Below are positions 1 through 26,711 of a stretch of 64,000 nt of DNA, piece by piece; the first letter of the stretch is position 1; every line of letters starts with the position of its first letter. Location: NCBI GenBank assembly GCA_964608025.1, contig CAZSLO010000007.1:14825-78824 (forward strand), in the 5' to 3' direction. The notes beneath the pieces were generated by a model. That model was not told where the DNA came from. It made no database searches and worked only from the letters and a program-made list of their open reading frames with translations. The position numbers and the translations under genes are program-made. The stretch is from an uncultured Dehalococcoidia bacterium. Its GTDB lineage: Bacteria > Chloroflexota > Dehalococcoidia > Lucifugimonadales > CAJWER01.

Positions 1-648
1 CTGGTAGGAGCTTTCCACCAACCCAAGATTGTATTAGCCGATGTCAATACCCTTACCAGTTTGCCCGATCGCGAGCGCAATGCAGGGTGGGCAGAAGCAA
101 TTAAACATGGACTAATTCTTGACGCCACTCTATTCCAAGATTTCGAGGTTGAAGGAGATGCCCTACGGTCCTTAGAAAGAAATATTAGTATTGATATAAT
201 CCAAAGAAGCATCGCTATCAAGGCTAAAGTTGTTACAGCAGACGAAAAAGAAACTTTAGGTCTCAGAATATTACTTAACTACGGCCATACTGTAGGACAT
301 GCGATTGAGACCGTGACCGCATATTCACAATATCTCCACGGCGAAGCAGTAAGCATCGGGATGATGGTAGCAGCCAGGATTAGTGAAAGTATGGGTATCC
401 TGTCAGCCGAAGAAGTTCTCAGGCAACAACGTGTACTTGAAGCATTCCAGTTGCCAATTTCGCTTTCCGATTTCGACATGGATTCTCTTAAGAATGCAAT
501 GAAACTAGACAAAAAGACCGTAGAGGGGTCAATCCGCTGGGTTTTACTAGACGGAATCGGACATGCAGTAACTCGTGAAAATGTACCTGAGAATATGATA
601 GACCAAGCTCTTGATTCTCTGGACAAAGAATCCGATACAAGAGCCTAG
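1..648 (+). CDS. aroB: 3-dehydroquinate synthase, C-terminal part (5' end lies outside the window)
   Basis: Frame 1 is open from base 1 (LVGAFHQPKIVLADVNTL precedes the track ORF). NAGWAEAIKHG, LLNYGHTVGHAIE and HGEAVSIGM match DHQS-family metal/substrate motifs. Confidence 0.85.
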   Translation: MVGAFHQPKIVLADVNTLTSLPDRERNAGWAEAIKHGLILDATLFQDFEVEGDALRSLERNISIDIIQRSIAIKAKVVTADEKETLGLRILLNYGHTVGHAIETVTAYSQYLHGEAVSIGMMVAARISESMGILSAEEVLRQQRVLEAFQLPISLSDFDMDSLKNAMKLDKKTVEGSIRWVLLDGIGHAVTRENVPENMIDQALDSLDKESDTRA

Positions 649-654
649 GATAAC

Positions 655-1485
655 TTGGAATACCTACTTCTTTTCGTAATCGGCCTAGGAACGGGTGTGA
701 TCGGTGCTATCACGGGGACGGGAGGAGGAATCATACTTGCCCCAATCCTCCTTATTTTCTTCGGGCTGGAACCGGCTCTTGGAGCTGGTACCACCCTGAC
801 CCTAGTTTCGGTGAATGGTATCTCCGGTTCTATTTTGTACCTCCGTGAAAAAATCGTCGACATACGAAGCGGACTCATTTTCGCCCTAGCAGCTACACCT
901 GGAGCAATACTAGCCCCCTTTGCCGTCAAGCAGATAGCAGGAGATATATTCAAAATACTATTCGGGTTCCTACTCGTTTCCATCGCAATTTATCTTTTTT
1001 ACAGGTCACTCAAACCCAGCAATGCATCCGTGAAAATGACCAGGGCTGTGGCATTTACAGTTAAACAGCGTCAAATAAACACAGGGACAGAAATATACAC
1101 ATATGAATTCAATCAATCCCTAGCGGCAATGTTTAACTTCTTTCTAGGTTTCGTATCTGCATTCTTCGGAACAGGTGGAGGATTCATTCGTACCCCGATC
1201 CTGGTTACAATTTTTGACTTTCCTGTAAAAATTGCCGTGGCAACTTCTATATTTGCATTGTCTATTTACGCGACAATTGGTGCAGCCGTCCATGTTTATC
1301 TTGGTCATACCGAATGGATACCAACTTTTATAGCGATTGCACCGGGCCTTATCATTGGAAGCCTCATAGGTGTTTACCTCTCGAAGCGAATTAGGAACAT
1401 CTGGACAATAATCATGCTAGGTGGTCTTCTACTTATCATGGGAGTCCAACTGGTATCTACAGGAGCAGCCTGGAGATTCGTGTGA
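655..1485 (+). CDS. TSUP (TauE/SafE-type) family membrane anion exporter
   Basis: 276 aa and polytopic. It has two internal halves, each with a G-rich TGTGGG / FGTGGGF helix typical of the TSUP family. Confidence 0.7.
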   Translation: MEYLLLFVIGLGTGVIGAITGTGGGIILAPILLIFFGLEPALGAGTTLTLVSVNGISGSILYLREKIVDIRSGLIFALAATPGAILAPFAVKQIAGDIFKILFGFLLVSIAIYLFYRSLKPSNASVKMTRAVAFTVKQRQINTGTEIYTYEFNQSLAAMFNFFLGFVSAFFGTGGGFIRTPILVTIFDFPVKIAVATSIFALSIYATIGAAVHVYLGHTEWIPTFIAIAPGLIIGSLIGVYLSKRIRNIWTIIMLGGLLLIMGVQLVSTGAAWRFV

Positions 1486-2744
1486 AAGAGCAAGAAACAA
1501 ATAACAAACCCGGCACCCAAAAGGAGCAGATCACCGGGACCGGGAAAAATCCACTGCCACGATCTTTCCGTTTCAGCCTTTATCCTGAATGCACTACCAG
1601 AACAGGAATGGCAAGGGCCGGCATACTGGAAACACCACATGGTACCGTGGAAACGCCTGCTTTCATGTCGGTTGCTACCCAGGGTTCTGTCAAGGCTCTA
1701 GGTCCGTCAGATCTTCAGGATATAGGTGCACAAATTATACTGGCAAACACCTATCATCTGTACCTCCGACCGGGCATCGGTGTAATCAAGGAATTTGGAG
1801 ACCTACATCAATTCATGGCTTGGAATGGGCCAATACTGACTGACTCAGGTGGCTTCCAGGGCTACAGCCTAGCACATCTACGTAAGCTGAATGAAAACGG
1901 AATTATTTTTAAATCACACTTGGACGGAAGTCTACATGAATTCACGCCAGAGGCTGTGGTAAGGTACCAGCAAGTTTTTGGGGCTGACATCATAATGCCA
2001 CTCGATGTTTGCGAGCCATCTTCAGCCAACAAGATCGCCGTGGAAAAATCACTAGAACGAACCTTGAGATGGGCAACTCGCTCTATTGAAACACACAAAC
2101 GTGATGACCAGGCCCTATTTGGAATCGTGCAGGGCGGTATGTTCCCTGATTTGCGTCAACGCTCAGCAGAAATGACTATTGAGTTAGGATTCTCCGGCTA
2201 TGCCATAGGGGGGCTCAGCGTCGGGGAGACAAAGTCACAGATGCACGATATTGTCAAACTGACAACACCGCTTCTACCAACCGATATGCCCAGGTATTTG
2301 ATGGGCGTGGGATCTCCAGAAGACCTGGTCGAATGCGTAGCTCAGGGCATAGATATGTTTGACTGCGTACTTCCAACACGAATAGCCCGTAACGGTGCCC
2401 TGTTTACGGAAAATGGCCGAATCAACATTGATACCGCGTCATTCCGTTCTGATAACAATCCAATTGACGATAAGTGTGACTGCTATACTTGCCAGACATT
2501 CCCCGCGGCCTATATACACCATCTCTTCCGAGCTAAGGAGTTACTCGCATATAGGCTTGCTACCATCCACAACCTGAGATTCACTATCAGGCTAATGGAG
2601 CATATACGCCAATCCATTATAGAGGGGACATTTGAATCGTTAAGACAATCATTCCATGAACGCTTCAGACCTCCCGATGAACAGACAAGACGTGCACAGA
2701 AGCTAAAATGGTTAAAAGCAGTCGGTAGGGGATCTTTGGACTAG
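1482..2744 (+). CDS. tgt: Queuine tRNA-ribosyltransferase (tRNA-guanine transglycosylase)
   Basis: ARAGILETPHGTVETPAFMSVATQG, LANTYHLYLRPG, TDSGGFQ, GLSVGE and the zinc motif CDCYTC...H are diagnostic Tgt motifs. The GTG start overlaps the upstream stop. Confidence 0.9.
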   Translation: MKEQETNNKPGTQKEQITGTGKNPLPRSFRFSLYPECTTRTGMARAGILETPHGTVETPAFMSVATQGSVKALGPSDLQDIGAQIILANTYHLYLRPGIGVIKEFGDLHQFMAWNGPILTDSGGFQGYSLAHLRKLNENGIIFKSHLDGSLHEFTPEAVVRYQQVFGADIIMPLDVCEPSSANKIAVEKSLERTLRWATRSIETHKRDDQALFGIVQGGMFPDLRQRSAEMTIELGFSGYAIGGLSVGETKSQMHDIVKLTTPLLPTDMPRYLMGVGSPEDLVECVAQGIDMFDCVLPTRIARNGALFTENGRINIDTASFRSDNNPIDDKCDCYTCQTFPAAYIHHLFRAKELLAYRLATIHNLRFTIRLMEHIRQSIIEGTFESLRQSFHERFRPPDEQTRRAQKLKWLKAVGRGSLD

Positions 2745-2778
2745 GTTCAGTTTCATATAAGGTAAACCCTGAGGCCGT

Positions 2779-2800
2779 AAAGTGAAGATCAGTTCACTTT
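2779..2800. terminator. Hairpin between convergent genes (possible bidirectional terminator)
   Basis: Perfect 8-bp inverted repeat AAAGTGAA-gatcag-TTCACTTT followed by T. It lies between the tgt stop and the stop of the minus-strand TPR gene. The stem is AT-rich, so support is weak. Confidence 0.3.
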
Positions 2801-2843
2801 TAAACCCACAAGCCCTGCTTCCACTTCTCTGTTATTGAGATCC

Positions 2844-3422
2844 CTAGCGACCAGCAATCCGGTCAAGTATTGTTTCTATCTCGTTCACGCTCCGGATGTC
2901 ACCAATTTCCCGGTAAAGCTTCAATGCCGACTCTAAATCCTCAATCGCAGATCTGATGTTGCCCATTTCCCTGTGTACAGATGCCCTGTTGCGAAACACT
3001 TCTGGTAAGGTATTCTTCAATTCAATCGACTTATCGAAATCTTCTAGGGCAAGTTCCCAGCGCTCTTGGTGAAAATAAGCTACACCGCGGTAATTGTAAG
3101 CCTTGGCAAATTCCGGCAAAACCCTGATCACCCTATCAAAAGCTGTGATTGCTTCTTCGTATTGAGCAGCACCAAGAAGTTGGACAGCCTGTGTGTAAGG
3201 GAAGAGCATATCAGGTGGTTCGGATGTCGGCTCTGGAGTGGGTGTGGGTTCTGGTGTTGGTGTAGGCAAAGGTACCTGGGTAGGCTCAGGAGTAGGAATA
3301 GCCGTAGGGGTCAGTGTAGGTGAAGGTACAGGAGTAGGCGTTGGTGCTGATCCGAGGGAACAACTTATAACCAACGATAGTATGAATATAACCGCAATAA
3401 TACCAGCAAGCCCCTGAGGCAT
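2844..3422 (-). CDS. Membrane-anchored TPR-repeat protein with a Pro/Thr-rich linker
   Basis: Starting at the internal Met (MPQGLAGIIAVIFILSLVISC), which is preceded by GGAGTGGGG, gives a signal/anchor helix. This is followed by a PTPTPVPSPTLTPT...PEPTPTPEPT linker and then TPR repeats (AYNYRGVAYF, ALEDFDKSIEL). The track ORF extends to 3500. Confidence 0.7.
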   Translation of the reverse strand: MPQGLAGIIAVIFILSLVISCSLGSAPTPTPVPSPTLTPTAIPTPEPTQVPLPTPTPEPTPTPEPTSEPPDMLFPYTQAVQLLGAAQYEEAITAFDRVIRVLPEFAKAYNYRGVAYFHQERWELALEDFDKSIELKNTLPEVFRNRASVHREMGNIRSAIEDLESALKLYREIGDIRSVNEIETILDRIAGR

Positions 3423-3553
3423 CCCCACTCCGATCAAATTGTTATAAAAATAGTACTGGAAATTAGCTACTAGGATAGCATAGTAAAAAGATACCTCCAT
3501 CCCAGATGGAATATCTTGTTTACAAAAATTTAATTTACCAAATAGGAGTAGTT

Positions 3554-4078
3554 GTGATTAGAACTCTAGATGGCAAGACACCCCGAATTCACTCTTCAGC
3601 TTTTGTAAGTGAAACCGCCTACGTAATAGGGGATGTGGATATTGGGGCGGGTTCCAGTATCTGGCCGGGAACGGTAATAAGGGCAGATGCCGGTAGTATT
3701 TCAATCGGCATCAACACTTGTATTCAAGACAACTCAGTGGTCCACGGAGACTCCGATGTTATCATTGGAAATAACGTGGTAATAGGACACAAAGTACTAT
3801 GCCATGCCAAGGTAGTTGGGGACAAATCACTGATAGGAAATGGCGCGACGGTTAACGACGGAGCATTGATCGGCGAAGGCAGCCTTATAGCTTCAGGCGC
3901 TATGGTAATCGAAAATATGGAGATACCACCCGGATCAATGGTAGTAGGTATTCCAGCCCGTGTCAGAGGAACCGTACAGGATAGACACACAGATCTGATT
4001 AGGATGACAGTCGAAGAATATGTTCGGAAGTCCAGGCTCTATAAAACACAGGGCAACCTGGAATCAAGGAACCTTTAA
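3554..4078 (+). CDS. Gamma-class carbonic anhydrase-like / left-handed beta-helix (hexapeptide repeat) protein
   Basis: The GTG at 3554 is preceded by AGGAG. The sequence P.I...AFV...A.VIGDV.IG..SSIWPG.VIRAD and the repeated hexapeptide pattern are typical of the YrdA/PaaY gamma-CA family. Confidence 0.8.
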   Translation: MIRTLDGKTPRIHSSAFVSETAYVIGDVDIGAGSSIWPGTVIRADAGSISIGINTCIQDNSVVHGDSDVIIGNNVVIGHKVLCHAKVVGDKSLIGNGATVNDGALIGEGSLIASGAMVIENMEIPPGSMVVGIPARVRGTVQDRHTDLIRMTVEEYVRKSRLYKTQGNLESRNL

Positions 4079-4094
4079 AAAATCTTGGGCGAGG

Positions 4095-5765
4095 TCACAT
4101 ACGTTCTGGTGCTGCCATTCCCATCAGGTCAAGACATCGAGCGAAGACCACTCTAACTGCATCGACTAACAGAAGCCGCGCTTTGGTGATGGGTAATTCC
4201 TCTCTGTTCTGGGAAACTACCCTACACTGCTGGTAAAAAGGATGGAACGCCTTGGCCAGATCCAAGGAATAGTGTGGCAAAGCCTGGGGTTCCAAGCTAT
4301 CAGCAATCAGCTCGACCACTTCGGGGAACTGCAACATTTTGCGTACGAGTTCAAGCTCAGCCGGATGAGTGAGCAAAGATACATCCCCATCTTCATACAC
4401 AATGCCACGCTCGAGCGCCTCTCTAAAAACTCCCGCGATGCGAGCATGAGCATACTGGATATAGTAGACAGGATTTTCATCAGATTCTCGCTTCGCAAGA
4501 TCAAGGTCAAATTCCATCTGGGAACCAGGTGCTTTTGATAAGAAAAAGAAACGGCAAGCATCGGGCCCTATCTCCTCTACCAATTCCCTCAATGTCACAA
4601 AATCCCCGGTGCGTTTCGATGCACGTACCGTCTCATCTCCACGCTTCAACGTGACCAGTTGATAAATCAGTAGATCCAATCTATCTTGATCAACACCTAA
4701 AGCGGAGGTCAGGGCCTTCATAAATCTGACATGTCCCTGGTGGTCGGCTCCCAGGACATCTATCACACGATCGAATTTACGCTCTAGAAATTTGTTGTAG
4801 TGGTAGGCAACATCTGTCGCAAAATAGGTTGGCGCACCTGTGCTTCTAACAAAAACCTTGTCTTCATCATCTCCATATCCTGATGATCGGAACCAAGTCG
4901 CGCCATCTCGATCAACAAGGTCATTTTGCTTAAGAAGCATCTGCATTACTGCTTCATACTGTCCACGCTCGTAAAGACTACGTTCACTGAACCATACGTC
5001 GTATTCTACGTTCAACAACCGCATATCAGTCTCTATGCCAACCACCATACTCCTGAGACCGATTTCACCAATTTCCCCAGCAGCCTGATCTCTATCCATC
5101 GCTACGAAACGATTGCCCTGATCATCATTTATCTTTTGCGCCAAATCGATCATATACTGGCCCTTATAACCACCCTGAGGAACCTCGGCCTCTTCTCCAA
5201 AAAGCTGTAGGTAACGGGCGAGTAAACTATGGTTGAATGCATCAATCTGGCTACCAGCATCGTTCAGGTAATACTCACGCTGAACATCGTAACCAGCTGC
5301 AGCCAAAACGTTCCCTATGGTACTACCCACAACTGCACCGCGTGCATGGCCAACATGGACAGGTCCAGTTGGATTAACACTTACGAATTCGACCTGTACA
5401 CGAATACCTGAGCCAGTGTCGGAAGTGCCAAAAGTATCTCCGGCCTCACGGATGGCATCAACTTGGGATGCGAGCCATCCTGGGTTGATCTCCACGTTGA
5501 TGAATCCAGGTGGAGCAGTCCATGCACGTAAGACAGGTCCTTTAACTGCCACTCGCGCAACAAGGATCTCCGCAATCGACATGGGATTCATCTTCATCTG
5601 GCTGGCAAGTCTTAAGGGAAGACCAGTTGCAAAATCACCATGTTCAGGCTTCTGAGGTCTCTCTACGACCACTTCCACTTCGGCCACCAAAGGGAGCTCT
5701 TTCGAATCCTGTGCCTCTTCGAGAGCTGTCCTAACAATGTGTTCTATCTCATTACTTATAATCAA
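4095..5765 (-). CDS. argS: Arginine--tRNA ligase
   Basis: 556 aa. Class I HIGH-type motif PTGPVHVGHARG, an Arg-tRNA synthetase N-domain, and the DALR anticodon-binding C-terminus ending in ERM. Confidence 0.93.
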   Translation of the reverse strand: MIISNEIEHIVRTALEEAQDSKELPLVAEVEVVVERPQKPEHGDFATGLPLRLASQMKMNPMSIAEILVARVAVKGPVLRAWTAPPGFINVEINPGWLASQVDAIREAGDTFGTSDTGSGIRVQVEFVSVNPTGPVHVGHARGAVVGSTIGNVLAAAGYDVQREYYLNDAGSQIDAFNHSLLARYLQLFGEEAEVPQGGYKGQYMIDLAQKINDDQGNRFVAMDRDQAAGEIGEIGLRSMVVGIETDMRLLNVEYDVWFSERSLYERGQYEAVMQMLLKQNDLVDRDGATWFRSSGYGDDEDKVFVRSTGAPTYFATDVAYHYNKFLERKFDRVIDVLGADHQGHVRFMKALTSALGVDQDRLDLLIYQLVTLKRGDETVRASKRTGDFVTLRELVEEIGPDACRFFFLSKAPGSQMEFDLDLAKRESDENPVYYIQYAHARIAGVFREALERGIVYEDGDVSLLTHPAELELVRKMLQFPEVVELIADSLEPQALPHYSLDLAKAFHPFYQQCRVVSQNREELPITKARLLLVDAVRVVFARCLDLMGMAAPERM

Positions 5766-5985
5766 CGTGCGTCACACGATACCAGATGCCGGCAACAGGG
5801 CCAACGAAACCCTCCAAGTCTTAAGAAGTCCAGTTGAAGAATGTAATAAATGTGGATATTAATATCTGAACTCACAGCAATCCCGGGTTCAAAATCCGCT
5901 CAATAAACCCGATGGGAAGGATGATCGAAATACAACTAGTACTACTGCCAATATGACACATCCTCCAAATATCTCGGAAATAAAA

Positions 5986-7041
5986 TTAGGCTATCACTTC
6001 TATTTTTGGACCTTTGGCGGGGGCTTCTACAAGAATCTCACCTACAACTGCGGCACTGTTTACTCCACTAATTCTCAATGTATCGATCAACTTATCAACC
6101 TTGGATGGATCGATGCTGATAAGCAATCCTCCAGAAGTCTGGGCATCACAGAGTAAAAGTTTATCCTGCTTTCCCAGGAGTGCATCCCACTTAACATGTG
6201 GATCAGCCGAAACTAAATTACGATTTGTCCCACCAGGAACAATATCTTTTTCCAAAAGTTCTAAACATCCTTCTAGAACCGGAACTGCTTGACAAGATAT
6301 TCTCGCAGAGACTGCACTTGCATTAACCAGTTCCAGTAAATGACCTATTAGTCCAAAGCCAGTTACGTCTACACATCCACTAGCACCCACTTCTAGCATA
6401 GCGTGCGATGCCTCACGGTTAAGGTTCCTCATATACTCGACAGCATTAATGATGATCTCGGGTCGAATTTCGGATTGTTTTGCAGCTGTTGTTATTATCC
6501 CCGTACCAATGGGCTTCGTAAGAATAAGTTTGTCTCCCGGCCTTGCGCCGGCGTTTGTGACCTCTGATTTTGGTTCAATCAGACCAGTTACCGCCATACC
6601 AAACTTGGGTTCCTCATCTTCAATTGTGTGTCCACCTACAATAATCACACCTGCCTCAGTAGCCTTTGAAGAAGCTCCTTTCATGATCTCTCCCAAGATT
6701 TCTATCGGCAAATCTGATGGGAACGCAACTATGTTCAAACCAAGTATAGGCGTCCCGCCCATAGCGTAAACATCCGATACCGCATTAGCCACAGCAATCT
6801 CACCATACGTGAACGGATCGTCCACAATAGGTGGGAAGAAATCGACCGTCTGTACGATAGCTAACTCATCAGTTAGCTTATATACAGCCGCATCGTCACC
6901 CGTAGCAAAACCTACCAGGAGATTCGGATCTGATACTTGGGGCAGCTGGCGCAAGACCTGCGCCAGGTCATCTGGACTTAATTTACCTGTTCAACCTGCA
7001 CAACGTGCAAGAGATGTCAGGCGAACCGGTTGATGCACCAT
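5986..7041 (-). CDS. selD: Selenide, water dikinase (selenophosphate synthetase), selenocysteine-containing form
   Basis: The track ORF (5986..6954) is a SelD lacking its N-terminal active-site loop. Reading upstream in the same frame gives ATG(7041)-MVHQPVRLTSLARCAG-TGA(6993..6991)-TGKLSPDDLAQVLRQLPQV, i.e. the G-x-G-[C/U]-x-x-K-[IL]-S-P loop with TGA at the E. coli Cys17 position. GGAGGA lies 8 nt upstream of the ATG. The total of 351 aa is a normal SelD length. Confidence 0.85.
6946..6966 (-). promoter_or_regulatory. SECIS-like hairpin downstream of the selD UGA
   Basis: Minus strand CUGGCGCA-GGUCU-UGCGCCAG: a perfect 8-bp stem with a GGUCU apical loop, starting 24 nt after the UGA. As I recall, the loop and closing pairs (GCAGGUCUUGC) resemble the E. 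coli fdhF SECIS apex (GCAGGUCUGC). Confidence 0.55.
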
Positions 7042-7144
7042 TGGGTATCCTCCACATTATTTAGGTACGAGTATAACAAACCCTATCCGGAATCGAGCTC
7101 TTAACACCGAGACGATTCTCCTCACATAGCAGTATTATTAAGAC

Positions 7145-7804
7145 ATGAGAATTAAATACAAATTGATAATTGGACTACTGGCATTCACGATCCCGACCGT
7201 AGTTGCCTGTGTTAAACATACCGAAACTCCAGAGGTTCAAGCTCATATCGAGTATGCAAATGGATCAAAATTACAGGATCTAGGAAGCCTCCAGAAGGCA
7301 GGTAACGCTTATTCCAAGGCAATCTCATTGGATCCTAGTTTCGCGGCTGCATATGTAGGACGTGGATATGTCTATCTTGCACACCAGAACCTTGCGTCCG
7401 CCCTCAGGGATTTCGACAAAGCGATCGATCTAGACCCTAATTTATCAGAGGCATACAACTACCGAGGATTGGTGTCCATAGGACTGTCTGATCCAGAACA
7501 GGCAATGCTTGATTTCACCAAAGCAATTGAGATAAATCCCCGGTTTGCTGATACCTACATTAATCGAGCCAGGCTCTATTTTCACCAACGTGATCTCTAC
7601 AGTGCAATCGAAGATATGACCATGGCAATACGGGAAGAACCAGGAAAACCACAATACTACATGGAACGTGCCCAAATTCACCTATTCAACCAAGATATAT
7701 CTGCAGCTACAATAGACCTAGAACAAGTTTTATCACTTACCAAAGATCCTGAAGTGGAACTGGAAGTAAAACGTCAACTAACTCGGATTGGGACTCTCAA
7801 TTGA
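7145..7804 (+). CDS. TPR-repeat lipoprotein
   Basis: Signal peptide with Cys (LLAFTIPTVVAC). Several TPR units follow (AYVGRGYVYL, ALRDFDKAIDLDP, AYNYRGLV, DFTKAIEINP). Confidence 0.75.
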   Translation: MRIKYKLIIGLLAFTIPTVVACVKHTETPEVQAHIEYANGSKLQDLGSLQKAGNAYSKAISLDPSFAAAYVGRGYVYLAHQNLASALRDFDKAIDLDPNLSEAYNYRGLVSIGLSDPEQAMLDFTKAIEINPRFADTYINRARLYFHQRDLYSAIEDMTMAIREEPGKPQYYMERAQIHLFNQDISAATIDLEQVLSLTKDPEVELEVKRQLTRIGTLN

Positions 7805-7968
7805 AAGAAACACAATAGTCCTTTACAAAAAATTTGGACCAGCTCCCTAAAACTCCAGTATATTCAGGCTTCGATCTCACCAACTGGTTCACAACACCAG
7901 TTCAAATAACACAATTAAACAGCTCCCTGTTTGACGTCTCTTCATATAGCTAGATATAGTGATCCTTC

Positions 7969-9258
7969 ATGGCTGGGCTGGACCAGGAACCGAACGAGGT
8001 AGTCGCGTTGCAAAAAAAGGACGCCGGCGCTCTGAGCGACACCACATGGCTAATTCTGATGTCGCTCATGCTTTTCTTACTCCTTTTACCAATATCAAGC
8101 TACGTGGCAGCCCTATCCCTGATAAAACAAGAATGGACACTAAGTAACACCGCGGCCGGCGCCATATACTCAGCCTACCTGGCAGGGTACGTACTTTCAG
8201 CTCTACTTGTAATTCCGCTAACTGACCGAATTGGACCTCGAAATATTCTCCTCGGATCCGCCGTATTATCGATCTTTACCCACATTATGTTCCCGATTTT
8301 TGCCGATGACATATTGATTGCTGTTTTCCTTAGAGCAGCGGCTGGAGTAGGCCTTGTAGGTATCTATATGCCGGGGCTCCGATTGATCGCAGACCGGTTC
8401 AGAGGCAACCGACGTGGTATGGCCATGGGCCTTTATGTAACTGCCCAATACGCAGCAAATAGCTGCTCCCTGGCACTTACAGGTCTACTCATGAATACAT
8501 TTGAATGGAGAGATGCGTATTTATTTGTCGCAATTGGAGCTGTCACCGGAATTCCTTTAGCAATACTTTTGCTCAGGAACCATGGCCAATCAACCCAAGG
8601 CATATCAGGCCGGCTCAACATGTCTGTATTTAGCAATGCTTCGGCCCGTTACCTGATCTTGGGGTACTCCCTCCACGCACTACAACTTTTTGCGGCGCGT
8701 GTCTGGTTACCAGTTTTTCTGGTCGGAGTTCTTATCGGTAAAGGGATTGATCCCGCAAAGGCGACTGTCGATGGGGCAACGATTGGTGGACTCGCATTGC
8801 TCGCCGGATCTGTCGGGCCTTTCATGGGTGGAGCCATCTCAGACAGATGGGGGCGATCAACATCAGCATCGCTGATCTTCGGACTAAGCGGTGGATGTGC
8901 ATTTATTATTGGCTGGACAACCGGATTACCTCTCGGTCTTATTTTCGGACTCAGTGTCATTTACGGGTGGGCTATTGCCGCAGACTCTGCCATATATTCA
9001 ACCGGAATAGTAGAAGTATCTTTACCCTCTACCCTAGGATCCACAATGGCTGTACAAGCATCTATAGGACTTCTTGGAGGGGTAGTAGGACCTATTATGT
9101 TTGGGGGCATCCTAGACATCTCGCCAAATGGTCTCGATTGGCCGATAGCATTCTCATCTCTTGGGTTATTAGCAATTGTCGCGATATGTGGAATGCAACG
9201 AATCCGCTATCTACCTCAAAATAACCTTTTGAAAGAATACGAAAACAATCCAACATAG
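7969..9258 (+). CDS. MFS transporter
   Basis: 429 aa with about 12 hydrophobic helices. It has the MFS loop motif LTDRIGPRN between TM2 and TM3 and a second-half repeat ISDRWGR. Confidence 0.8.
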   Translation: MAGLDQEPNEVVALQKKDAGALSDTTWLILMSLMLFLLLLPISSYVAALSLIKQEWTLSNTAAGAIYSAYLAGYVLSALLVIPLTDRIGPRNILLGSAVLSIFTHIMFPIFADDILIAVFLRAAAGVGLVGIYMPGLRLIADRFRGNRRGMAMGLYVTAQYAANSCSLALTGLLMNTFEWRDAYLFVAIGAVTGIPLAILLLRNHGQSTQGISGRLNMSVFSNASARYLILGYSLHALQLFAARVWLPVFLVGVLIGKGIDPAKATVDGATIGGLALLAGSVGPFMGGAISDRWGRSTSASLIFGLSGGCAFIIGWTTGLPLGLIFGLSVIYGWAIAADSAIYSTGIVEVSLPSTLGSTMAVQASIGLLGGVVGPIMFGGILDISPNGLDWPIAFSSLGLLAIVAICGMQRIRYLPQNNLLKEYENNPT

Positions 9259-9287
9259 ACAGGATCAATTATCTAGAAGGGGAAAAA

Positions 9288-9728
9288 TTGTCAAAAATTA
9301 CAGTTAAAAGCCTAGGTGACATGCAACAACTAGTCGTGACCACCAACCACACCTTCATAGCAGATGAATCAACAAGTGAGGATAATGGCCAAGGTCCAGA
9401 TCCCTATGAACTACTTCTGGCCTCCCTTGGGACTTGAACGGCAATGACAATCCTCCTGTATTCTCGGAGGAATGAATGGCCGGTTGAGAGCGTGACTATC
9501 GAGTGCAGCTATCGCCGTGTCAAAAATAGTGAACCACCCACTGGTGGATCGAATATCGAACCTATAGAAGAAATACATAGTAAAATTACTCTCAGCGGGG
9601 ATCTTTCGAACGATCAGAGGGATCGTCTCGCATACATAGCTGGGAAGTGTCCAATCCAGCGCACTCTCGAATCGAAACCTCGTATGATTAAAGAGATAAA
9701 TGTAGTCCAAACAGAGGAAAGCAAATGA
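9288..9728 (+). CDS. OsmC/Ohr-family peroxiredoxin-like protein with in-frame UGA (predicted selenoprotein)
   Basis: The track ORF 9444..9728 is only the C-terminal two-thirds of an OsmC fold (GKCPIQRTL carries the resolving Cys). The same frame is open upstream: TTG(9288)-SKITVKSLGDMQQLVVTTNHTFIADESTSEDNGQGPDPYELLLASLGT-TGA(9435..9437)-TAMTILLY. The TGA sits exactly where the family has the peroxidatic Cys (P.ELLL.AL..C....). Full length is 146 aa. Confidence 0.75.
9451..9471 (+). promoter_or_regulatory. Candidate SECIS hairpin downstream of the OsmC-like UGA
   Basis: UCCUCC-UGUAUUCUC-GGAGGA: a 6-bp stem starting 13 nt after the UGA. It is weaker than the selD element (no GGUC loop). Confidence 0.35.
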
Positions 9729-10504
9729 ATCAACGTGTTCCAATCCTAGTCTATCACCACGTATATAGGGATGATGATCCTGACCTCAACGGGCCCACCG
9801 GTAATAAAGCTACTGGCAAGATCTCCGAGTCAGAGTTTCGCAGTCACATTTCTTACCTTGCGGAGGGTGGCTGGCAAGTGGTATCAACTACAGATGTGGT
9901 AGATTGGATCGAATATGATAAGCCATTGCCCAAGAAGGCAGTGGTACTACATTTCGACAACGGTTGGCTCGACACCTGGTCGATTTCGATGCCTATCCTG
10001 CGAGATCTAGGAATGACAGGCACTTGCTACGTTATCAGTGAAGGAACAGAAGCAGCCAGCCATGGACTCCCGGCAGCGATCCGCACATCCACAGAAGGGG
10101 CAGTACAAAAAACCTGTATCACATGGCAACAGACTGAAGAACTTCTCGTGGAAGGTTGGGAAATAGGGGCTCATACTGCAACCCATCCTAAACTAGTTGT
10201 GGTCCAGGAAAAAAACGGGGACGAAGCAGTATTGGAAGAGATTAATAGGTCAAATAAAGCCTACGAGGCCAACCTGGGTTTTGTTCCCAAGCATTTTGCA
10301 TACCCCAGTGGATCTCGTAATTATCGAACAGACTCCCTCCTAAAACCCATATATAAATCACTGAGACTCTGGAACTTTAGTAATCCACCAAAATGGTCAT
10401 TTACTAACAAGGCTACTTCACCTCATGCACTTGAATGTCAGAATATCGATAACACTGTCCAGTACAGGGATTTCACACGTATATTCGAAGAGGCAGTTAC
10501 CTAG
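9725..10504 (+). CDS. Polysaccharide deacetylase (NodB-homology) family protein
   Basis: PILVYHHV, HFDNGW and GAHTATHP match NodB-domain motifs. The start forms an ATGA overlap with the OsmC-like stop. Confidence 0.7.
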   Translation: MNQRVPILVYHHVYRDDDPDLNGPTGNKATGKISESEFRSHISYLAEGGWQVVSTTDVVDWIEYDKPLPKKAVVLHFDNGWLDTWSISMPILRDLGMTGTCYVISEGTEAASHGLPAAIRTSTEGAVQKTCITWQQTEELLVEGWEIGAHTATHPKLVVVQEKNGDEAVLEEINRSNKAYEANLGFVPKHFAYPSGSRNYRTDSLLKPIYKSLRLWNFSNPPKWSFTNKATSPHALECQNIDNTVQYRDFTRIFEEAVT

Positions 10505-10596
10505 ACCCATCAGCTATATATATGTAACCGCTGGTTAACCTTACTGTACCCAGAAGGAAGATATAGACCAATCCCAACTAACTTAAAATCAAGTTT

Positions 10597-11100
10597 CTAG
10601 GTATACTGGCCAAACCCCAGTGCACGCCAGTCCAAAAGTATCTGGTTATCGTTAGGGAACGGGAGTGGGGGCAGATCATCAGCATCAAAGAGTGCTACCT
10701 CAGACGCATCGTGCCCAGCATTAAGATGTCCTCCAATGACTACTGCATGGTAAACAACAAGTATTACCGGACTACCTGTCTGAGAATAAACACCTATTAG
10801 TCCTTCTGTCCGAACATCGAGGCCAGTCTCCTCCTTGACTTCCCTGATAGCCCCATCTTCCACAGCCTCACCTCGGTCAACGAATCCGGACGGAAAAGAC
10901 CAGGACCCCAATGCTGGCTCGACCCCTCGTTTAACCATTACCAGTCTCCGGTCAATAGATACTAGTACCACCGCAGCGACCTTAGGATCGAGAAAGATTC
11001 TTCGACCACATTCACCACAGGATAAGTGCGACATCCCGTCGATCATCGTACTAACGAGTCTACCGCCACAAGACTGGCAAAAGTTCATTTCATTTGACAT
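10597..11100 (-). CDS. NUDIX hydrolase with N-terminal zinc ribbon
   Basis: CQSCGGRL...CGECGR zinc ribbon, followed by a Nudix box GSWSFPSGFVDRGEAVEDGAIREVKEETG. The start is taken at the internal Met (MSNEMNF); the track ORF extends to 11169. Confidence 0.8.
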   Translation of the reverse strand: MSNEMNFCQSCGGRLVSTMIDGMSHLSCGECGRRIFLDPKVAAVVLVSIDRRLVMVKRGVEPALGSWSFPSGFVDRGEAVEDGAIREVKEETGLDVRTEGLIGVYSQTGSPVILVVYHAVVIGGHLNAGHDASEVALFDADDLPPLPFPNDNQILLDWRALGFGQYT

Positions 11101-11238
11101 TCTAAACCGCCATTCCACCAAGCTTAACGGTGAAAGTATAAAAGGTATAGATGCGAAGCATTTGACCACAGTTTAATCGCATCTCTATAATCGAGCAGCT
11201 TCAAACCCAATATAAGAACAAACATAAGAGGTGACAAA

Positions 11239-12000
11239 TTGGCCGAACTTAGACCTAACAGGGTGAAGCGTAAGCTGGAAGACGGCGACGTAGCCCTAAT
11301 TGTACAAGGTGAACTCACTCCAGACATGGTCGAATTACTTGGCCCAATTGGATTCGATGGCATTTGGATAGAAGGAGAACATGGGCCGGTTGATTTCGCA
11401 GATATTCGCGATTTCACCAGGGCCGCAGATCTTTGGGGACTGACTTCCGTAGCTCGTGTCAACCTCAATATCCCCGGTGTAATCTACCGTACACTCGACC
11501 AGGGAGCACAGGCAGTAGTTGTACCTCACATCAATACAGCAGCTGAGGCAAGCGCCGTGCTGGATGCAGCCAAGTTCGCTCCAATAGGCTCACGAGGATC
11601 ATATATGAGCCGACAAGGGATTGGGGTCGAAGACTACTATATTAAAGCCAACGACGAAACGATGACAATGATCCTGATCGAAGATATCATCGCGGTTAAT
11701 AATCTTGAAGAGATACTTGCTGTTGACATTGACGTTTTTTATGTTGCACCAGGAGATTTAGCACAAAGCATGGGATATCCTGGCCAACATACCCACCCAG
11801 ACGTCCAACAGACCGTGGACAAAACCATCGCAAGAATAATAGAAGCAGGGAGAGTTGCGGGTGCTTTAGCTACGGATGGCTCTGTTGAAGACTACGTAGA
11901 CAAGGGGGCCCGCCTCATCTCTACTAGCTACAACCAATGGCTCACATCCGGTGCCGAATCTTACCTCGGCAAAGCCAAGACTGCGATCAGTAAACGCTGA
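11239..12000 (+). CDS. HpcH/HpaI-family class II aldolase
   Basis: 253 aa. The GFDGIWIEGEHGP, RVN and VVPHINTAAEA pattern is typical of 2,4-dihydroxyhept-2-enedioate / 2-keto-3-deoxy-sugar-acid aldolases. Confidence 0.8.
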   Translation: MAELRPNRVKRKLEDGDVALIVQGELTPDMVELLGPIGFDGIWIEGEHGPVDFADIRDFTRAADLWGLTSVARVNLNIPGVIYRTLDQGAQAVVVPHINTAAEASAVLDAAKFAPIGSRGSYMSRQGIGVEDYYIKANDETMTMILIEDIIAVNNLEEILAVDIDVFYVAPGDLAQSMGYPGQHTHPDVQQTVDKTIARIIEAGRVAGALATDGSVEDYVDKGARLISTSYNQWLTSGAESYLGKAKTAISKR

Positions 12001-12395
12001 TTGTCACAGTTAAACTGATCCAATACATATCTATTATCTACCGGGATAAGCCCTGTATTTCTCCGGGCATCCCATCACCAATCGCCTCGTAATACTTAGG
12101 CGATGTAAACAGATCGTGGTGTTATATTTTGGAGGTATATCAACATATCTGAAGGCTAAGAAATATTCCCGATACCACATACAAAAATGTGATTTCCTTA
12201 CCTGCCTCAATTTTCACCAAGTCATCTGTTAGCATGACGATGATAATCAAGCCAACCAAGGAGCAGGCAATAACCATTTTTTACATCGTTCGATAAGAAC
12301 TCGCCCACACGGTTCCATTTTTTCGTTCCTGTATTCGACCACTTCTTCTTTCAAAACTATCGATTTAGGAGACTCTCCCGTTTTACTATTCGATC

Positions 12396-13637
12396 ATGAC
12401 GAATTTGACCAATATTATTGAAGAGCATCTTGGTTCCGAATACCGAGAAATCCTGGATAGGATTTCACATAGCGCGACCAAAACAGGCCTGCGTGTTTAC
12501 TTAGTAGGAGGCTCTGTCAGGGATTTAATTCTAGGTTTTACACCTTCCGAGTTGGATCTGGCTGTCTCAGGAGAATCTACCGATCCAATTGGCTCGTTAG
12601 CCACCAGTCTGAGTGGTGTCGTCTATTCAAAATCGGAGTTTGGCACTGCCAAGTTGGATATAGATGGAATAAGACTTGACATGGCGCGTACCAGACGAGA
12701 GAAATACGTCAAACCAGGAGCATTACCAACAGTCGAATTCACTCGGTCAATAGAAGAAGACTTGTCTCGACGAGATTTCACAATTAATGCCATGGCAATT
12801 TCTCTAAACATGGCAACCAGATGGGAACTCATAGATCCGTTTGAAGGAAGTAGAGATTTGGCATCGAAACAAATTCGTGTTCTACACAGAAGAAGCTTTG
12901 TGGACGACGCAACTCGCATTCTTAGAGCAATACGATACGCTACTCGCCTCAGTTTGGATTTAGTACCGGAAACATCAATTCTTATTGAAAATCAACTATC
13001 GTACTTAGGCATGATCCATGGAGATCGGATACGCCACGAACTTATCCGAATTTTCTCGGAAGAAAAACAGGCTGAAATCCTCAATCTCGCGGAAAGCTTA
13101 GGAATATTACGGGCGATCCATCCAAGCCTCGGCCTGAATAATACAATCGTTTCAAAATTGCAGGAATCCTCCCGCCGACCGGGACAAGTGGTGCTAGGAT
13201 CCCTAGCATTCGAAGCTAGTAACCATATGAGATCCAGTCTTAAAAATAGACTCAGCCTATCTGCAAACTGGTCCCGAATAATTGAAGATATTGGACACGT
13301 GAAAACCAAATTTGAACAGTTGAGTGAAAAGAGACTCTCACCTAGCCAAATTTACGGTATCCTATCCCAGTATGACACCCATGCAATAGAAGCCTGTAGT
13401 ATCTCCTGCAAAGATACCAAGATACGAAAGCGACTGGAACTCTATCTACAAAAACTATTGAATACAAGTACTATTATGGACGGCAAAAACATTATCGCAC
13501 TGGGATTATCTGAAGGACCCAATGTAGGAAAACTCCTAAGCCACCTATTGGATGCCAAGCTTGATGGACTAGTCCCTACCCGGGAAGATGAGGAACAATT
13601 TATACTTACCAACATAATTAGAATCTCTCAAGATTAG
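12396..13637 (+). CDS. CCA-adding enzyme / poly(A) polymerase-family tRNA nucleotidyltransferase
   Basis: VYLVGGSVRDLILG...DLDLAV (the Pol-beta nucleotidyltransferase GG..RD...D.D head), RRDFTINAMA, and RILRAIRYATRL. Confidence 0.8.
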   Translation: MTNLTNIIEEHLGSEYREILDRISHSATKTGLRVYLVGGSVRDLILGFTPSELDLAVSGESTDPIGSLATSLSGVVYSKSEFGTAKLDIDGIRLDMARTRREKYVKPGALPTVEFTRSIEEDLSRRDFTINAMAISLNMATRWELIDPFEGSRDLASKQIRVLHRRSFVDDATRILRAIRYATRLSLDLVPETSILIENQLSYLGMIHGDRIRHELIRIFSEEKQAEILNLAESLGILRAIHPSLGLNNTIVSKLQESSRRPGQVVLGSLAFEASNHMRSSLKNRLSLSANWSRIIEDIGHVKTKFEQLSEKRLSPSQIYGILSQYDTHAIEACSISCKDTKIRKRLELYLQKLLNTSTIMDGKNIIALGLSEGPNVGKLLSHLLDAKLDGLVPTREDEEQFILTNIIRISQD

Positions 13638-13804
13638 GCAAGCCGATCTTTAGTCGATTAAATATTGGTTTTGCAAAGCTAAGAATCCCTGCAAAACCAT
13701 TGGCGAATTTATACAGATCTATATGTTGCGTTCCCGCAATAACAAATCCTATCCTGCCGTAACGAAGTTGAGAAAGTCACTTGTGTCAAAAACTAGGAGA
13801 AATA

Positions 13805-16078
13805 ATGGCATCTGTTACTAGTACGTCTACAAAACCACACAAGGTTATAGGTACCCGCCCTGTGCGACACGATGGTGTCCCCAAGGTAACAGGCGAGGCG
13901 AAATACGGTGCAGATATGCACCTGCCAAGAATGCTATTTGGCAAGGTGTTACGCAGCCCACATCCCCACGCGATTATTAAATCGATCAACACCAAACTTG
14001 CTGAAGCACATCCAGATGTACGAGCAGTTGCAACAGCAAAAGACTTAATACCCAAAGAAACTGTGGGCCAAGAGGTAGTATTGGGCGTGACTCAGACTGA
14101 CAATGTACTGGCAAATAGCAAAGTACTCTACAGCGGCCATGCTATCGCTGCAGTTGCCGCAACCAATCCACACGTAGCTGAAGAAGCGCTGTCCCTTATT
14201 GAAGTCGAATATGAAATACTACCAGCGGTAACAACAGTAGAAGAAGCTATGAAACCAGATGCTCCTTGGCTACACGAAGACTGGGCTATTGATAATCCCG
14301 ATCAGATTCCAAACGTAGCTGGACAGGAGAACTACCAATTTGGTGATCTGGCTAACGGCTTCGATTTGGCCGACCTCGTAGTCGAGCGGGAATTCCGTAC
14401 ACAATCTGTCCATCAGGGTTATATCGAACCGCAAAACGCGACCGCCTCTTGGCCACCAGACGACCGTCTGACGATTTGGTGTAGTAGCCAAGGGCATTTC
14501 GGGATCAGGACCAATGTAGCAAGAGTTCTTGGAATATCTGAATCCGAGATTAAGGTTGTCCCAATGGAAATTGGTGGTGGTTTCGGTGGAAAACTAAACG
14601 TCTATCTAGAACCAATTGCAGCCATTTTATCCAAGAAGAGTGGCTGCCCAGTGAAGATGTGGATGACTAGATCCGAAGTCCTAGAAGCAACTGGACCCGC
14701 ATCTGGAAGTTATATCCGGGTGAAGATGGGAGCTACGAGGAAAGGACAAATCACTGGTGCTCAGATCTATTATGCATATGAAGCTGGCGCATATCCAGGC
14801 GCACCTCTTGCAGGTGCGGCAGCAGCGGTCCTAGCACCATATCACATTGAAAATGTTCAGATTGATGCCTTTGATGTCGTCGACAACAAACCAAAAACTT
14901 CTGCTTATCGAGCACCAGGCGCTACCGTAGCAGTGTTCGCTATAGAGAGTCTCATAGACGAGATTGCAGAAAATTTGAACATAGACCCGGTTAAACTGCG
15001 TCTCCAAAACGCTGCCAAAGAAGGTACTCGTCGCGCGGATGGAGTTATGAATGTACGCATCGGCGCACAAGAAGTAATGGAAGCTGTACACGAACACCAA
15101 CACTACTCAGATCCGATTAACGATACGGGTAAAGACGGGCTTTTCGGCCGGGGAATCGCTATGGGTTTCTGTCGAAACAACTCTGGGATGGCATGCGTAG
15201 TAGCAAATGTACTCGATAATGGCAAAATCAGCTTGGTAGAAGGATCCGTAGACATAGGAGGCAGCCGAACTGCTGTCAGCCAGCAATTAGCAGAAGTCCT
15301 GGGAATTCCAGTCATGGATGTTATTCCCCAAGTTGCTGACACCGATACTATTGGATACACATCCAACACTGGGGGTAGTGGTGTCGCCTACAAGTCTGGA
15401 TGGGCCGCTCATGACGCTGCGAACGATATTAAGGACCAACTCATAAAGCGTGTCTCCATGATTTGGGAAGTTCCATCCAAAGACATCGCCTATGTTGACG
15501 GAGCGTTACAGCATAACTCCGATCCAGAACTAAGAATGACATTCAAGGAAATAGCTGCCATTCTCCCAGATACTGGTGGACCCGTGGTCGGGAGGGCAAA
15601 TATCAACCCTGGAGGACTTCACGGCTCTTACGCAGCGAACATAGTAGACGTAGAAGTGGATCCGGAGACTGGCAAGGTAGATATATTGCGGTATACTGCA
15701 TTTCAAGATGCAGGAAAGGCAATTCATCCAAGCTATGTAGAAGGCCAAATACAAGGAGGTACAACCCAGGGAATCGGGTGGGCATTGAACGAAGAGTATT
15801 TCATGAGCTCAGATGGCCGTATGTTGAATACCTCTTTCCTAGATTACAGGATGCCTACGAGTTACGACGTACCAATGATTGAGCCGGTCATTGTCGAGGT
15901 ACCAAGTGCTATGCATCCATTTGGTGTCCGAGGCGTTGGTGAAGCTAACATCGTTCCCCCACCTGCCGCGATCGCAAACGCGATCCACGATGCTACAGGG
16001 ATCAGGATGCGTAATCTACCGATGTCTCCTGGCTCAATATTAAAGACCATACAAGAATCAAATTCTGATATTAGATAA
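13805..16078 (+). CDS. Xanthine dehydrogenase/aldehyde oxidase-family molybdopterin-binding large subunit
   Basis: The ATG at 13805 is preceded by AGGAG. An a/b-hammerhead N-domain (G.ARYGADM, VLRSPHPHA.I) is followed by the Mo-binding domains (GGGFGGK, ayRAPG, GVGE). About 757 aa. Confidence 0.85.
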   Translation: MASVTSTSTKPHKVIGTRPVRHDGVPKVTGEAKYGADMHLPRMLFGKVLRSPHPHAIIKSINTKLAEAHPDVRAVATAKDLIPKETVGQEVVLGVTQTDNVLANSKVLYSGHAIAAVAATNPHVAEEALSLIEVEYEILPAVTTVEEAMKPDAPWLHEDWAIDNPDQIPNVAGQENYQFGDLANGFDLADLVVEREFRTQSVHQGYIEPQNATASWPPDDRLTIWCSSQGHFGIRTNVARVLGISESEIKVVPMEIGGGFGGKLNVYLEPIAAILSKKSGCPVKMWMTRSEVLEATGPASGSYIRVKMGATRKGQITGAQIYYAYEAGAYPGAPLAGAAAAVLAPYHIENVQIDAFDVVDNKPKTSAYRAPGATVAVFAIESLIDEIAENLNIDPVKLRLQNAAKEGTRRADGVMNVRIGAQEVMEAVHEHQHYSDPINDTGKDGLFGRGIAMGFCRNNSGMACVVANVLDNGKISLVEGSVDIGGSRTAVSQQLAEVLGIPVMDVIPQVADTDTIGYTSNTGGSGVAYKSGWAAHDAANDIKDQLIKRVSMIWEVPSKDIAYVDGALQHNSDPELRMTFKEIAAILPDTGGPVVGRANINPGGLHGSYAANIVDVEVDPETGKVDILRYTAFQDAGKAIHPSYVEGQIQGGTTQGIGWALNEEYFMSSDGRMLNTSFLDYRMPTSYDVPMIEPVIVEVPSAMHPFGVRGVGEANIVPPPAAIANAIHDATGIRMRNLPMSPGSILKTIQESNSDIR

Positions 16079-16269
16079 GCATCAATCGAATTGACAGGCA
16101 GCATTTGCCTTCCTACAATTTATAAGTCAGCAGTCTCTTTCTTTTTTAAAGAAGACTGCAATTTTTTTGTGCATGGGTCTTAGGTACAATAGGTAAAGGA
16201 AACGTATAAAGTTGGATCCGGTGGATCCATAGCCCTGATGCTAATAATAATCGCGACACTGGTAAATAT

Positions 16270-17319
16270 ATGTCCGAAGATATAGAAAAAAACATCCCAC
16301 CAACAGAGCCTGGCATTAATCCAGATTCGGACACTGTGGATCAAGAATTCGCTATACAACTAAACGGTGTAACAAAGCAGTTCGGACCTAACATAGCAGT
16401 AAATAATGTTTCTTTTGACGTAAAAAAAGGTGAAGTGGTCGGATTTCTAGGCCCAAACGGGTCTGGTAAAACCACAACAATGAGGCTAATCACGTCATTC
16501 TATACGCCAGATAAAGGGCAAATATCTATAGAAGGCCTAGATAATCAAAAACACGACGTGGAAACCCGACGTATGATTGGCTATCTACCAGAGAATAACC
16601 CCGTTTATGGTGATTTTCTCGTTCACGAATTTCTGGAATTCGTGGCAGATTTACGTGGTTTGTCGGGCCCACAAAGGCGAGTGGACATCGATGAATCCGT
16701 CGAAGAGACCGGTATCCAAGAAGTGTATAACAAGCCCATAAACCAGTGTTCCAAGGGATTTCGCCAACGAGTCGGCCTAGCCGGGTGCATCTTGCACCAC
16801 CCCGACATCCTCATCATGGACGAACCAACAGAGGGTTTAGATCCAAATCAACGGGTCCCAATAAGAGAACTCATAAGAAGCATGGGTGAGCGACGAACTG
16901 TAATGCTTAGTACTCATGTTCTCCAAGAAGTTGAAGAAACCTGTGACAGGCTTTTGATAATTAGCCGTGGCAGGATAGTAGCGAACGGCACAGTGGATGA
17001 ACTGACAACACTGTCACATGGCGAAAGATTGGTTGATCTAGAGGTAGAAGGAGAAAACGTTGAGGCAGCTCTTGCAAACGTGCCTGAAATACGTTCTGTA
17101 CGCCAGTTAGCGCCAGTGGGTGGTAGACAAAAGTTCACTCTGTCAGTCAATCCCGGCGAAGAACACGATGTCCGCCCGCAAATATACACCTTGGCTAAGA
17201 GTAAAGACTGGGTTATCTGGGAACTCCACCAAGAATCAGCCCGCCTAGGGGAAATTTTCCAAACCCTAACAGATGAAGACCAAAGTCCAATACCAGACGT
17301 AAAAGAAGACGAGAACTGA
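16270..17319 (+). CDS. ABC transporter ATP-binding protein (GldA-like, ABC-2 type)
   Basis: Walker A GPNGSGKTT, signature SKGFRQR, Walker B ILIMDEPTEGLD. Confidence 0.9.
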   Translation: MSEDIEKNIPPTEPGINPDSDTVDQEFAIQLNGVTKQFGPNIAVNNVSFDVKKGEVVGFLGPNGSGKTTTMRLITSFYTPDKGQISIEGLDNQKHDVETRRMIGYLPENNPVYGDFLVHEFLEFVADLRGLSGPQRRVDIDESVEETGIQEVYNKPINQCSKGFRQRVGLAGCILHHPDILIMDEPTEGLDPNQRVPIRELIRSMGERRTVMLSTHVLQEVEETCDRLLIISRGRIVANGTVDELTTLSHGERLVDLEVEGENVEAALANVPEIRSVRQLAPVGGRQKFTLSVNPGEEHDVRPQIYTLAKSKDWVIWELHQESARLGEIFQTLTDEDQSPIPDVKEDEN

Positions 17320-17320
17320 T

Positions 17321-20570: not shown

Positions 20571-20620
20571 AGGCTAACTGCAGCCCAACTGCAAACTGCA
20601 TTTCTCCCATTAGCGAATAG

Positions 20621-21607: not shown

Positions 21608-21634
21608 CCTAAGAAGACACGGGCAAACCAATAA

Positions 21635-25653: not shown

Positions 25654-25668
25654 CTAGAAAGAGGTATC

Positions 25669-26689: not shown

Positions 26690-26711
26690 ATGCTCGAATC
26701 AGTGCATCAAC

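Follow-up and report, generated by a model that had tools for sequence, protein, structure and literature searches.

The selD gene on the minus strand of this stretch of DNA (64 kb from an open-ocean SAR202/Dehalococcoidia bacterium, analysed in full and called the window from here on) raises the question of whether an in-frame TGA close to its 5' end stops translation or is read as an amino acid. In the mechanical list of open reading frames the gene begins at TTG 6954 and encodes 322 amino acids. The sequence-only reading had noticed that the six-frame track cuts SelD at this point and that the same frame continues upstream, across the TGA, to an ATG preceded by GGAGGA. It had proposed that selD itself encodes a selenoprotein, and it expected standard gene callers to mis-annotate it. 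Reading and translation of the minus strand confirmed each of these coordinates (Table 1), and the expected mis-annotation has occurred, as the public gene calls in four ENA assemblies also give 322 residues from TTG 6954. Between the ATG and the TGA lie 16 sense codons, MVHQPVRLTSLARCAG, and the TGA is followed by TGKLSPDDLAQVLRQL, translated as TGKLSPDDL, after which the frame remains open as far as the stop codon. Our preferred answer, to which we give a probability of about 0.9, is that the TGA is decoded and that the product of this gene is a selenoprotein, with selenocysteine (Sec) placed at catalytic residue 17 by means of the UGA and a SECIS hairpin. A promoter and terminator scan of positions 5700..7250 gave nothing beyond expectation near the gene start.

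Table 1. Features of the selD locus, in coordinates of the window
Feature	Position	Strand	Description	Basis
Full selD coding sequence (predicted)	5986..7041	minus	351 aa, Sec at residue 17, stop codon 5988..5986	Translation, profiles and structure alignments
Shine-Dalgarno-like GGAGGA	7053..7048	minus	6 nt 5' of the ATG	Direct sequence reading
Proposed true start, ATG	7041..7039	minus		Direct reading; codon -16 is most often Met among relatives
In-frame UGA, predicted Sec codon	6993..6991	minus	Residue 17	Aligned with E. coli Cys17; TGA in relatives
Putative SECIS hairpin, register A	6966..6946	minus	8-bp stem CUGGCGCA/UGCGCCAG, apical loop GGUCU	Fold, recoding control, covariation, bSECIS model
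Overlapping alternative hairpin, register B	6971..6953	minus	AUGACCU-GGCGC-AGGUCUU, 6/7 pairs in the window	
TTG used as start by ORF and gene callers	6954..6952	minus	Inside the SECIS hairpin; yields the 322-aa product	

For the profile tools, a cysteine was placed at residue 17 of the 351-residue product. This extended product scored 381.4 bits against TIGR00476 (selD; cut-off 125) over residues 7-314 of 351 and 351.2 bits against NF002098 (cut-off 299); the public gene call carries Pfam AIRS and AIRS_C annotations. Escherichia coli SelD (PDB 3u0o) aligned over residues 4-344 with E = 1e-75, the window stretch qpvrltslarcagCtgklspddl lying over the catalytic loop with U17 exactly on C17 and K20 on K20. 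The SelD of Aquifex aeolicus (2yye) aligned over 334 residues with E = 2e-71, the same loop included. The sequence-only reading had rebuilt this loop across the UGA, had put the UGA at the position of Cys17 and had named an alignment of the 351-residue product as a check; both placements hold, and the N-terminal extension matches the SelD loop of the E. coli and A. aeolicus enzymes. Since the UGA falls on Cys17 and a lysine on Lys20, the extension can be taken as a real SelD active-site loop instead of a chance ORF. By homology, the 351-residue product is a full-length SelD (selenide, water dikinase, or selenophosphate synthetase), and ATP-dependent synthesis of selenophosphate would be its activity.

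The codon at this position was followed in related genomes. A scan of species-representative genomes gave 80 selD loci, 78 of them from Dehalococcoidia, SAR202 or other Chloroflexota MAGs and the other two from a KSB1 MAG and an Actinomycetota MAG. The homologous codon is TGA in all 78 Chloroflexota relatives, which share 48-73% SelD identity with the window, and TGT in the KSB1 and Actinomycetota relatives. Four independent metagenome assemblies (biosamples SAMN05991682, SAMN05991696, SAMN05991717 and SAMN05991724) also contain the TGA with its flanks, differing at 0-1 positions over 200 nt, and this recurrence of the TGA together with its upstream sequence excludes a sequencing error. That selD is a pseudogene, or a Cys-type (TGT/TGC) gene damaged in sequencing or assembly, is a negligible prospect, for although TGA lies one base away from TGT or TGC and TGT is indeed the codon in relatives of other phyla, the same TGA stands in the four sample assemblies and in every one of these divergent species-level relatives, and the gene is otherwise intact, with the profile score of a full-length SelD.

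Codon conservation around the UGA was computed over 79 distinct sequences. From codon -10 to codon +17 the protein is conserved and synonymous variation is present: leucine -9 is the single residue at its position and is written with six codons, threonine -8 is kept in 78 of the 79 sequences with five codons, glycine -1 is invariant with three codons, and lysine +3 is invariant as well. Protein conservation begins at about codon -11/-12 and is lost further upstream, where the start codons lie. Judged by this substitution pattern, purifying selection acts at the protein level on the codons 5' of the UGA, and their conservation as protein combined with synonymous variation argues that ribosomes read through the TGA across the whole clade. 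Elsewhere in the window TGA serves as an ordinary stop, as at the end of argS (4097..4095); because it still terminates ordinary genes, the decoding in selD would be a site-specific recoding and no change of the genetic code.

These data bear directly on the opposite answer to the question, namely that the TGA is a real stop, that functional SelD is N-terminally truncated and starts at TTG 6954 or later, and that the 16 upstream codons form a chance or vestigial ORF. The gene callers chose precisely this 322-residue product, and the Sec machinery was not found in the window, as described below. However, such a protein would be deprived of the catalytic loop from Sec/Cys17 to Lys20, which aligns perfectly across the TGA, and a chance or vestigial ORF is hard to reconcile with purifying selection on codons -10 to -1 in 79 sequences and with an arrangement retained in 78 of 78 relatives. 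Moreover, a conserved hairpin encloses the TTG, and the sequence read shows no ribosome-binding site ahead of it. We therefore consider truncation extremely unlikely.

On the 3' side of the UGA, the hairpin described in the sequence-only reading, a perfect 8-bp stem with a GGUCU loop 24 nt past the UGA, was recovered both in the sequence and by folding. Its eight Watson-Crick pairs are uninterrupted, the loop begins 32 nt past the UGA, and the isolated hairpin folds at -13.6 kcal/mol. As the hairpin lies inside coding sequence, synonymous recoding is the proper null, and we compared it with recodings that kept the same peptide and drew their codons from the window's own usage. The folding energy was -14.5 kcal/mol for the 36-nt region and averaged -5.5 kcal/mol for 300 such recodings, none of which was as stable (0/300). 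The 59 distinct versions of this region among relatives gave a mean z of -3.0, a value that may be inflated by applying the codon table of the window to GC-richer relatives. With a dinucleotide shuffle of a 76-nt stretch, the fold was no better than the shuffles (z = -0.09).

The hairpin was also set against the bSECIS model of bSECISearch, with the criteria taken as quoted in PMC13188914. The model places an apical loop of 3-9 nt (5 nt in the window) on an upper stem of 4-16 bp (8 bp), with 16-37 nt between UGA and loop (32 nt), a G within the first two loop positions in a G[G|U] pattern (GGU at the start of the loop) and a free energy of -7.5 kcal/mol or lower, which the value given above satisfies (PMC13188914). 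The window hairpin thus agrees with the model on 5 of 5 points. On the ungapped alignment of the 79 sequences, the helix at 6966..6946 is 80.7% paired, versus 23.6-47.4% in controls whose pairing partners were slid one to three columns away. Two-sided changes occur at five of its eight pairs, for example G-C to U-A in two relatives (L025 and L037), and the covariation score exceeded those of 500 of 500 shuffles and of all slid controls. As far as an alignment can tell, the hairpin is kept by compensatory and synonymous-site changes. Rfam at gathering thresholds gave zero matches over the whole window, and a permissive Rfam scan of 6880..7080 returned a chance match to MIR168 (E = 2.4) and no SECIS family. 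The proposal that the product of selD is a selenoprotein is upheld by these results taken with the preceding ones: TGA in 78 of 78 relatives, selection upstream of it, agreement with the bSECIS model and covariation in the stem.

Incorporation of Sec would further require its own machinery, of which SelB is regarded as the signature (PMC1794560). ARAGORN found zero tRNA genes, and thus no tRNA-Sec, in the 64-kb window; in the selD flanks of the 80 scanned loci (L001-L080) it found tRNA-Asn, tRNA-Gly and tRNA-Met only, and again no tRNA-Sec. SelA, SelB, YbbB, YqeB and YqeC were absent from NCBIfam and Pfam scans of 30 large ORFs of the window. Motif searches for selA and selB over the window and related loci gave no match, and neither did tblastn with possibly inexact E. 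coli SelA and SelB queries in 626 kb. Altogether, neither the window nor the DNA around selD in 84 related loci (about 560 kb) yielded a selenium gene besides selD, which indicates that in this lineage selD is unclustered with other sel genes. A crude screen of the whole window for in-frame TGA junctions, run without homology support, left selD as the sole convincing candidate. That TGA-interrupted genes occur genome-wide, as the sequence-only reading had expected, is a reasonable prediction. Published gene counts for the group lend indirect support to the presence of Sec machinery. One of the relatives (L007, contig MPND01000002) belongs to SAR202 cluster bacterium bin90, the selD of which has the same TGA, and the COG counts for bin90 in Table S4 of PMC5649159 list SelB (COG3276) once, SelA (COG1921) three times and SelD once; every other SAR202 bin in that table is also listed with SelB, SelA and SelD (PMC5649159). 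This listing for related bins suggests that selA, selB and selC lie elsewhere in the source genome.

It could still be that the UGA is decoded as something other than Sec, either as Cys carried on tRNA-Sec or as Trp or Cys through near-cognate read-through, and that the hairpin is a read-through stimulator only. The open ocean is poor in selenium, and neither selA nor selC turned up in the window or in the selD flanks of relatives, both of which would suit a decoding of this kind. Against it stand the SelB-type apical G-G-U loop with a spacing that conforms to the bSECIS model, the listing of SelB for every SAR202 bin of PMC5649159, and the location of the codon at the catalytic Sec/Cys site, which many SelD proteins are already known to fill with Sec (PMC1794560). 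Decoding as an amino acid other than Sec is consequently highly unlikely, and we return to Sec insertion as the preferred reading.

The relatives differ in the position of the hairpin. In 47 sequences, the window included, it occupies nt 27-47, with numbering from the U of the UGA (register A). In 30 more distant sequences the register-A hairpin cannot form (mean 4.8/8 pairs), and a 7-bp hairpin is found six nt upstream instead, at nt 22-40, with a mean of 6.96/7 pairs (register B). Both registers have a 5-nt loop with the consensus GGUNC, and their loops lie 32 or 26 nt from the UGA, each distance within the bSECIS range. Register B shows covariation of its own: pair 23-39 is A-U in 16 sequences and G-C in 12 with zero mismatches, the alternatives being GAA..UUG and GAG..CUG at synonymous sites, and at pair 26-36 a change from C-G to U-A goes alongside a change from Gln-Val to Glu-Ile. 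In each register group the GU-bearing loop sits on the better-formed hairpin. On a rough neighbour-joining tree of SelD, from which the SECIS-encoding residues were left out, each register is typical of certain clades, and the two switch back and forth several times.

The existence of two registers opens the possibility that Sec is inserted in the window with the upstream hairpin at 6971..6953 as the working element, or with two conformers alternating. Thirty relatives have the upstream register only, with the same GGUNC loop, and both hairpins can form in many register-A relatives, L007 even having 7/7 register-B pairs. In the window itself, however, the upstream version is interrupted by a U-U mismatch and its loop, GGCGC, has no GU, and its seven-position pairing is worth -3.3 kcal/mol (-7.9 kcal/mol for the best fold of that stretch) versus -13.6 kcal/mol for register A; the association of the GU loop with the better-formed hairpin in each group also speaks against it. 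As register B is weaker in the window, mismatched and devoid of GU, we take 6966..6946 as the working element and regard a role for the upstream hairpin as unlikely.

In the preferred reading, translation would begin at ATG 7041, and SelB-GTP-Sec-tRNA(Sec), tethered to the register-A hairpin, would put selenocysteine at the UGA. Both the binding of SelB to this hairpin and the actual insertion of selenium at residue 17 are predictions from the features described above. Residue 17 would then hold the catalytic position of CAG-U-TGK, the glycine-rich N-terminal loop, and the invariant lysine equivalent to E. coli Lys20 follows three residues later. SelD is expected to make selenophosphate, which SelA needs for Sec-tRNA(Sec). 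Because the product of SelD is needed for Sec-tRNA(Sec), we propose that selD depends on its own product.

Two features may be novelties of this lineage: the two-register SECIS, and a cysteine three residues before Sec (C-x-x-U), which is present in 72 of the 79 sequences within the local motif C-A-G-U-T-G-K. It is tempting to speculate that on at least three occasions the SAR202 selD SECIS has shifted between clades, by exactly two codons, and that the quasi-palindromic codon run GAC-CUG-GUN/GCN-CAG-GUN-CUG served to rebuild the same stem and GGUNC loop, so that the RNA dictates residues +10, +14 and +15 of the protein. In combination with the lineage-typical C-x-x-U, which could form a protective selenenylsulfide in an aerobe, Sec-SelD would then be the gene that upholds the entire trait of Sec decoding in a bacterial group that ranks among the most abundant of the dark ocean. 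We hold this joint interpretation tentatively, at a little less than even odds.

The public 322-residue call drops the catalytic loop and hides the predicted Sec decoding of the UGA in the source genome and in 78 related species-level genomes. If the preferred reading is correct, SAR202 would require selenium and the Sec machinery, and should hold more selenoprotein genes that standard callers split or shorten. Selenium goes unmentioned in the two main SAR202 genome papers. The 79 aligned SECIS elements, with their two registers and synonymous-site covariation, would make a clean example on which to train detection of bacterial SECIS elements. Few bacterial selenoproteins are as widespread as SelD, which ranks second (PMC1794560, PMC13188914). 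A count from 2006 gave 38 Sec-SelD genes, and three selenoproteins in Chloroflexi (PMC1794560), and a 2026 review suggests that in marine bacteria, which seldom have FdhA, SelD may sustain the Sec trait (PMC13188914).

Sec-containing SelD is therefore already well known; the window selD is a further example, and knowledge of the SelD mechanism is unchanged by it. The Sec-SelD proteins described earlier (A. aeolicus, 2yye/2zod, and the set of PMC1794560) belong to the same enzyme family, with the same catalytic position recoded by UGA, and in other bacteria, too, a SECIS hairpin lies in the coding region right after the UGA. The window gene differs from this known set in its lineage, SAR202/Dehalococcoidia, and in its loop, which reads C-A-G-U-T-G-K compared with S-S-G-C-A-A-K in the deposited A. 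aeolicus chain. With E. coli SelD (3u0o) it has in common the loop RLT..(G/C)AG-[C/U]-x-x-K-(I/L)-SP and the motifs DDAAVY and AMGG, but the E. coli enzyme has Cys17 (TGC/TGT type) and needs no SECIS. The second cysteine of the loop is at +2 in E. coli SelD and the two Cys-type relatives, in contrast to -3 in the 72 sequences with C-x-x-U.

The sequence-only reading had called the apex of the hairpin fdhF-like. The E. coli fdhF SECIS used for comparison was confirmed in 5419 of 5426 E. coli genomes, where it lies within fdhF with 100% identity. Both elements are hairpins in coding sequence on the 3' side of a UGA, and GCA-GGUC-UGC of fdhF corresponds to GCA-GGUCU-UGC of the window, with a shared octamer, GCAGGUCU, and a stack of G-C, C-G and A-U pairs closing on GGUC. 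To this extent the description was apt, but it fails beyond the octamer: the loop has 5 nt in the window and 4 nt in fdhF, the unbroken 8-bp stem of the window is missing the bulged U in the 5' arm of the fdhF element, and the loop starts 32 nt past the UGA in contrast to 18 nt in fdhF. In E. coli the bulged U is required in the SECIS, and the spacing between UGA and hairpin follows a strict rule; in view of this spacing rule, the window SECIS would probably not serve E. coli SelB. From the general bSECIS model, in comparison, the window element departs nowhere, and its family spans two registers 6 nt apart that are both in range. On sequence grounds, the window element is a putative SECIS that fits the general bacterial model and would work like that of fdhF, while standing outside the E. 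coli subtype.

In SAR202 bacteria the SECIS hairpin of selD occurs in two registers spaced 6 nt (two codons) apart, as seen in the window (6934..6993, minus strand) and at the homologous positions of the relatives' selD loci (L001-L080), with a GGUNC loop common to both. The downstream register is used in 47 sequences and the upstream one in 30. In a rough SelD tree each register is typical of particular clades, with several switches between them. Many relatives with the upstream register carry a tRNA-Asn(GTT) gene on the upstream side of selD; the window and its closest relatives lack this gene.

The organism itself was found again in four separate metagenome samples at 99.5-99.9% nucleotide identity (L081-L084, ENA assemblies from biosamples SAMN05991682, SAMN05991696, SAMN05991717 and SAMN05991724), and in each of these the selD gene call is the truncated 322-aa product.

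Features in the window and, for the tRNA gene, in relatives
Feature	Position	Strand	Remark
Cys14 codon of selD	7000..7002	-	TGT
Molybdenum hydroxylase large subunit	13781..16078	+	xanthine dehydrogenase / 4-hydroxybenzoyl-CoA reductase family
343-aa ORF	19539..20570	+	no match; scanned against Pfam only
161-aa ORF	35910..36395	+	no match; scanned against NCBIfam only
667-aa ORF	37757..39760	+	no match in NCBIfam and Pfam
Error-prone DnaE2-type polymerase and adjoining weak Pol IV/ImuB-like gene	41242..45817	-	
943-aa protein with PAD domain	46114..48945	+	
Sarcosine-oxidase beta- and alpha-family genes, type III glutamine synthetase, GltB-like protein	54096..62007	-	cluster
tRNA-Asn(GTT)	about 100-1700 nt upstream of selD, usually no more than a few hundred nt		L033, L038, L039, L046, L047, L050, L052-L054, L058, L065, L071

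No tRNA genes were found anywhere in the 64-kb window (1..64000), and a search of the same span against Rfam gave no match at gathering thresholds. The molybdenum hydroxylase large subunit gene lies 7 kb from selD; neither YqeB nor YqeC, which mark the selenium-cofactor trait, was seen within the 64-kb window. The DnaE2-type polymerase matches NF004225 with 863 bits, and together with its Pol IV/ImuB-like neighbour it looks like a damage-inducible mutagenesis cassette. The sarcosine-oxidase cluster would fit with the breakdown of methylated amines in SAR202. Pfam PAD (protein-arginine deiminase, PF03068), an uncommon domain among bacteria, covers residues 450-659 of the 943-aa protein with 188 bits, and an NCBIfam scan of this protein gave no match. 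The 667-aa ORF follows a neutral-ceramidase-like gene and overlaps that gene's stop by 4 nt.

A Cys residue stands three positions N-terminal to the predicted Sec, in a C-A-G-U motif, in 72 of the 79 SAR202 SelD sequences, and this residue (Cys14) may act as the resolving Cys for a selenenylsulfide. The arrangement differs from that of E. coli SelD and of the two Cys-type relatives, in which the second Cys is found at +2 (C-x-C).
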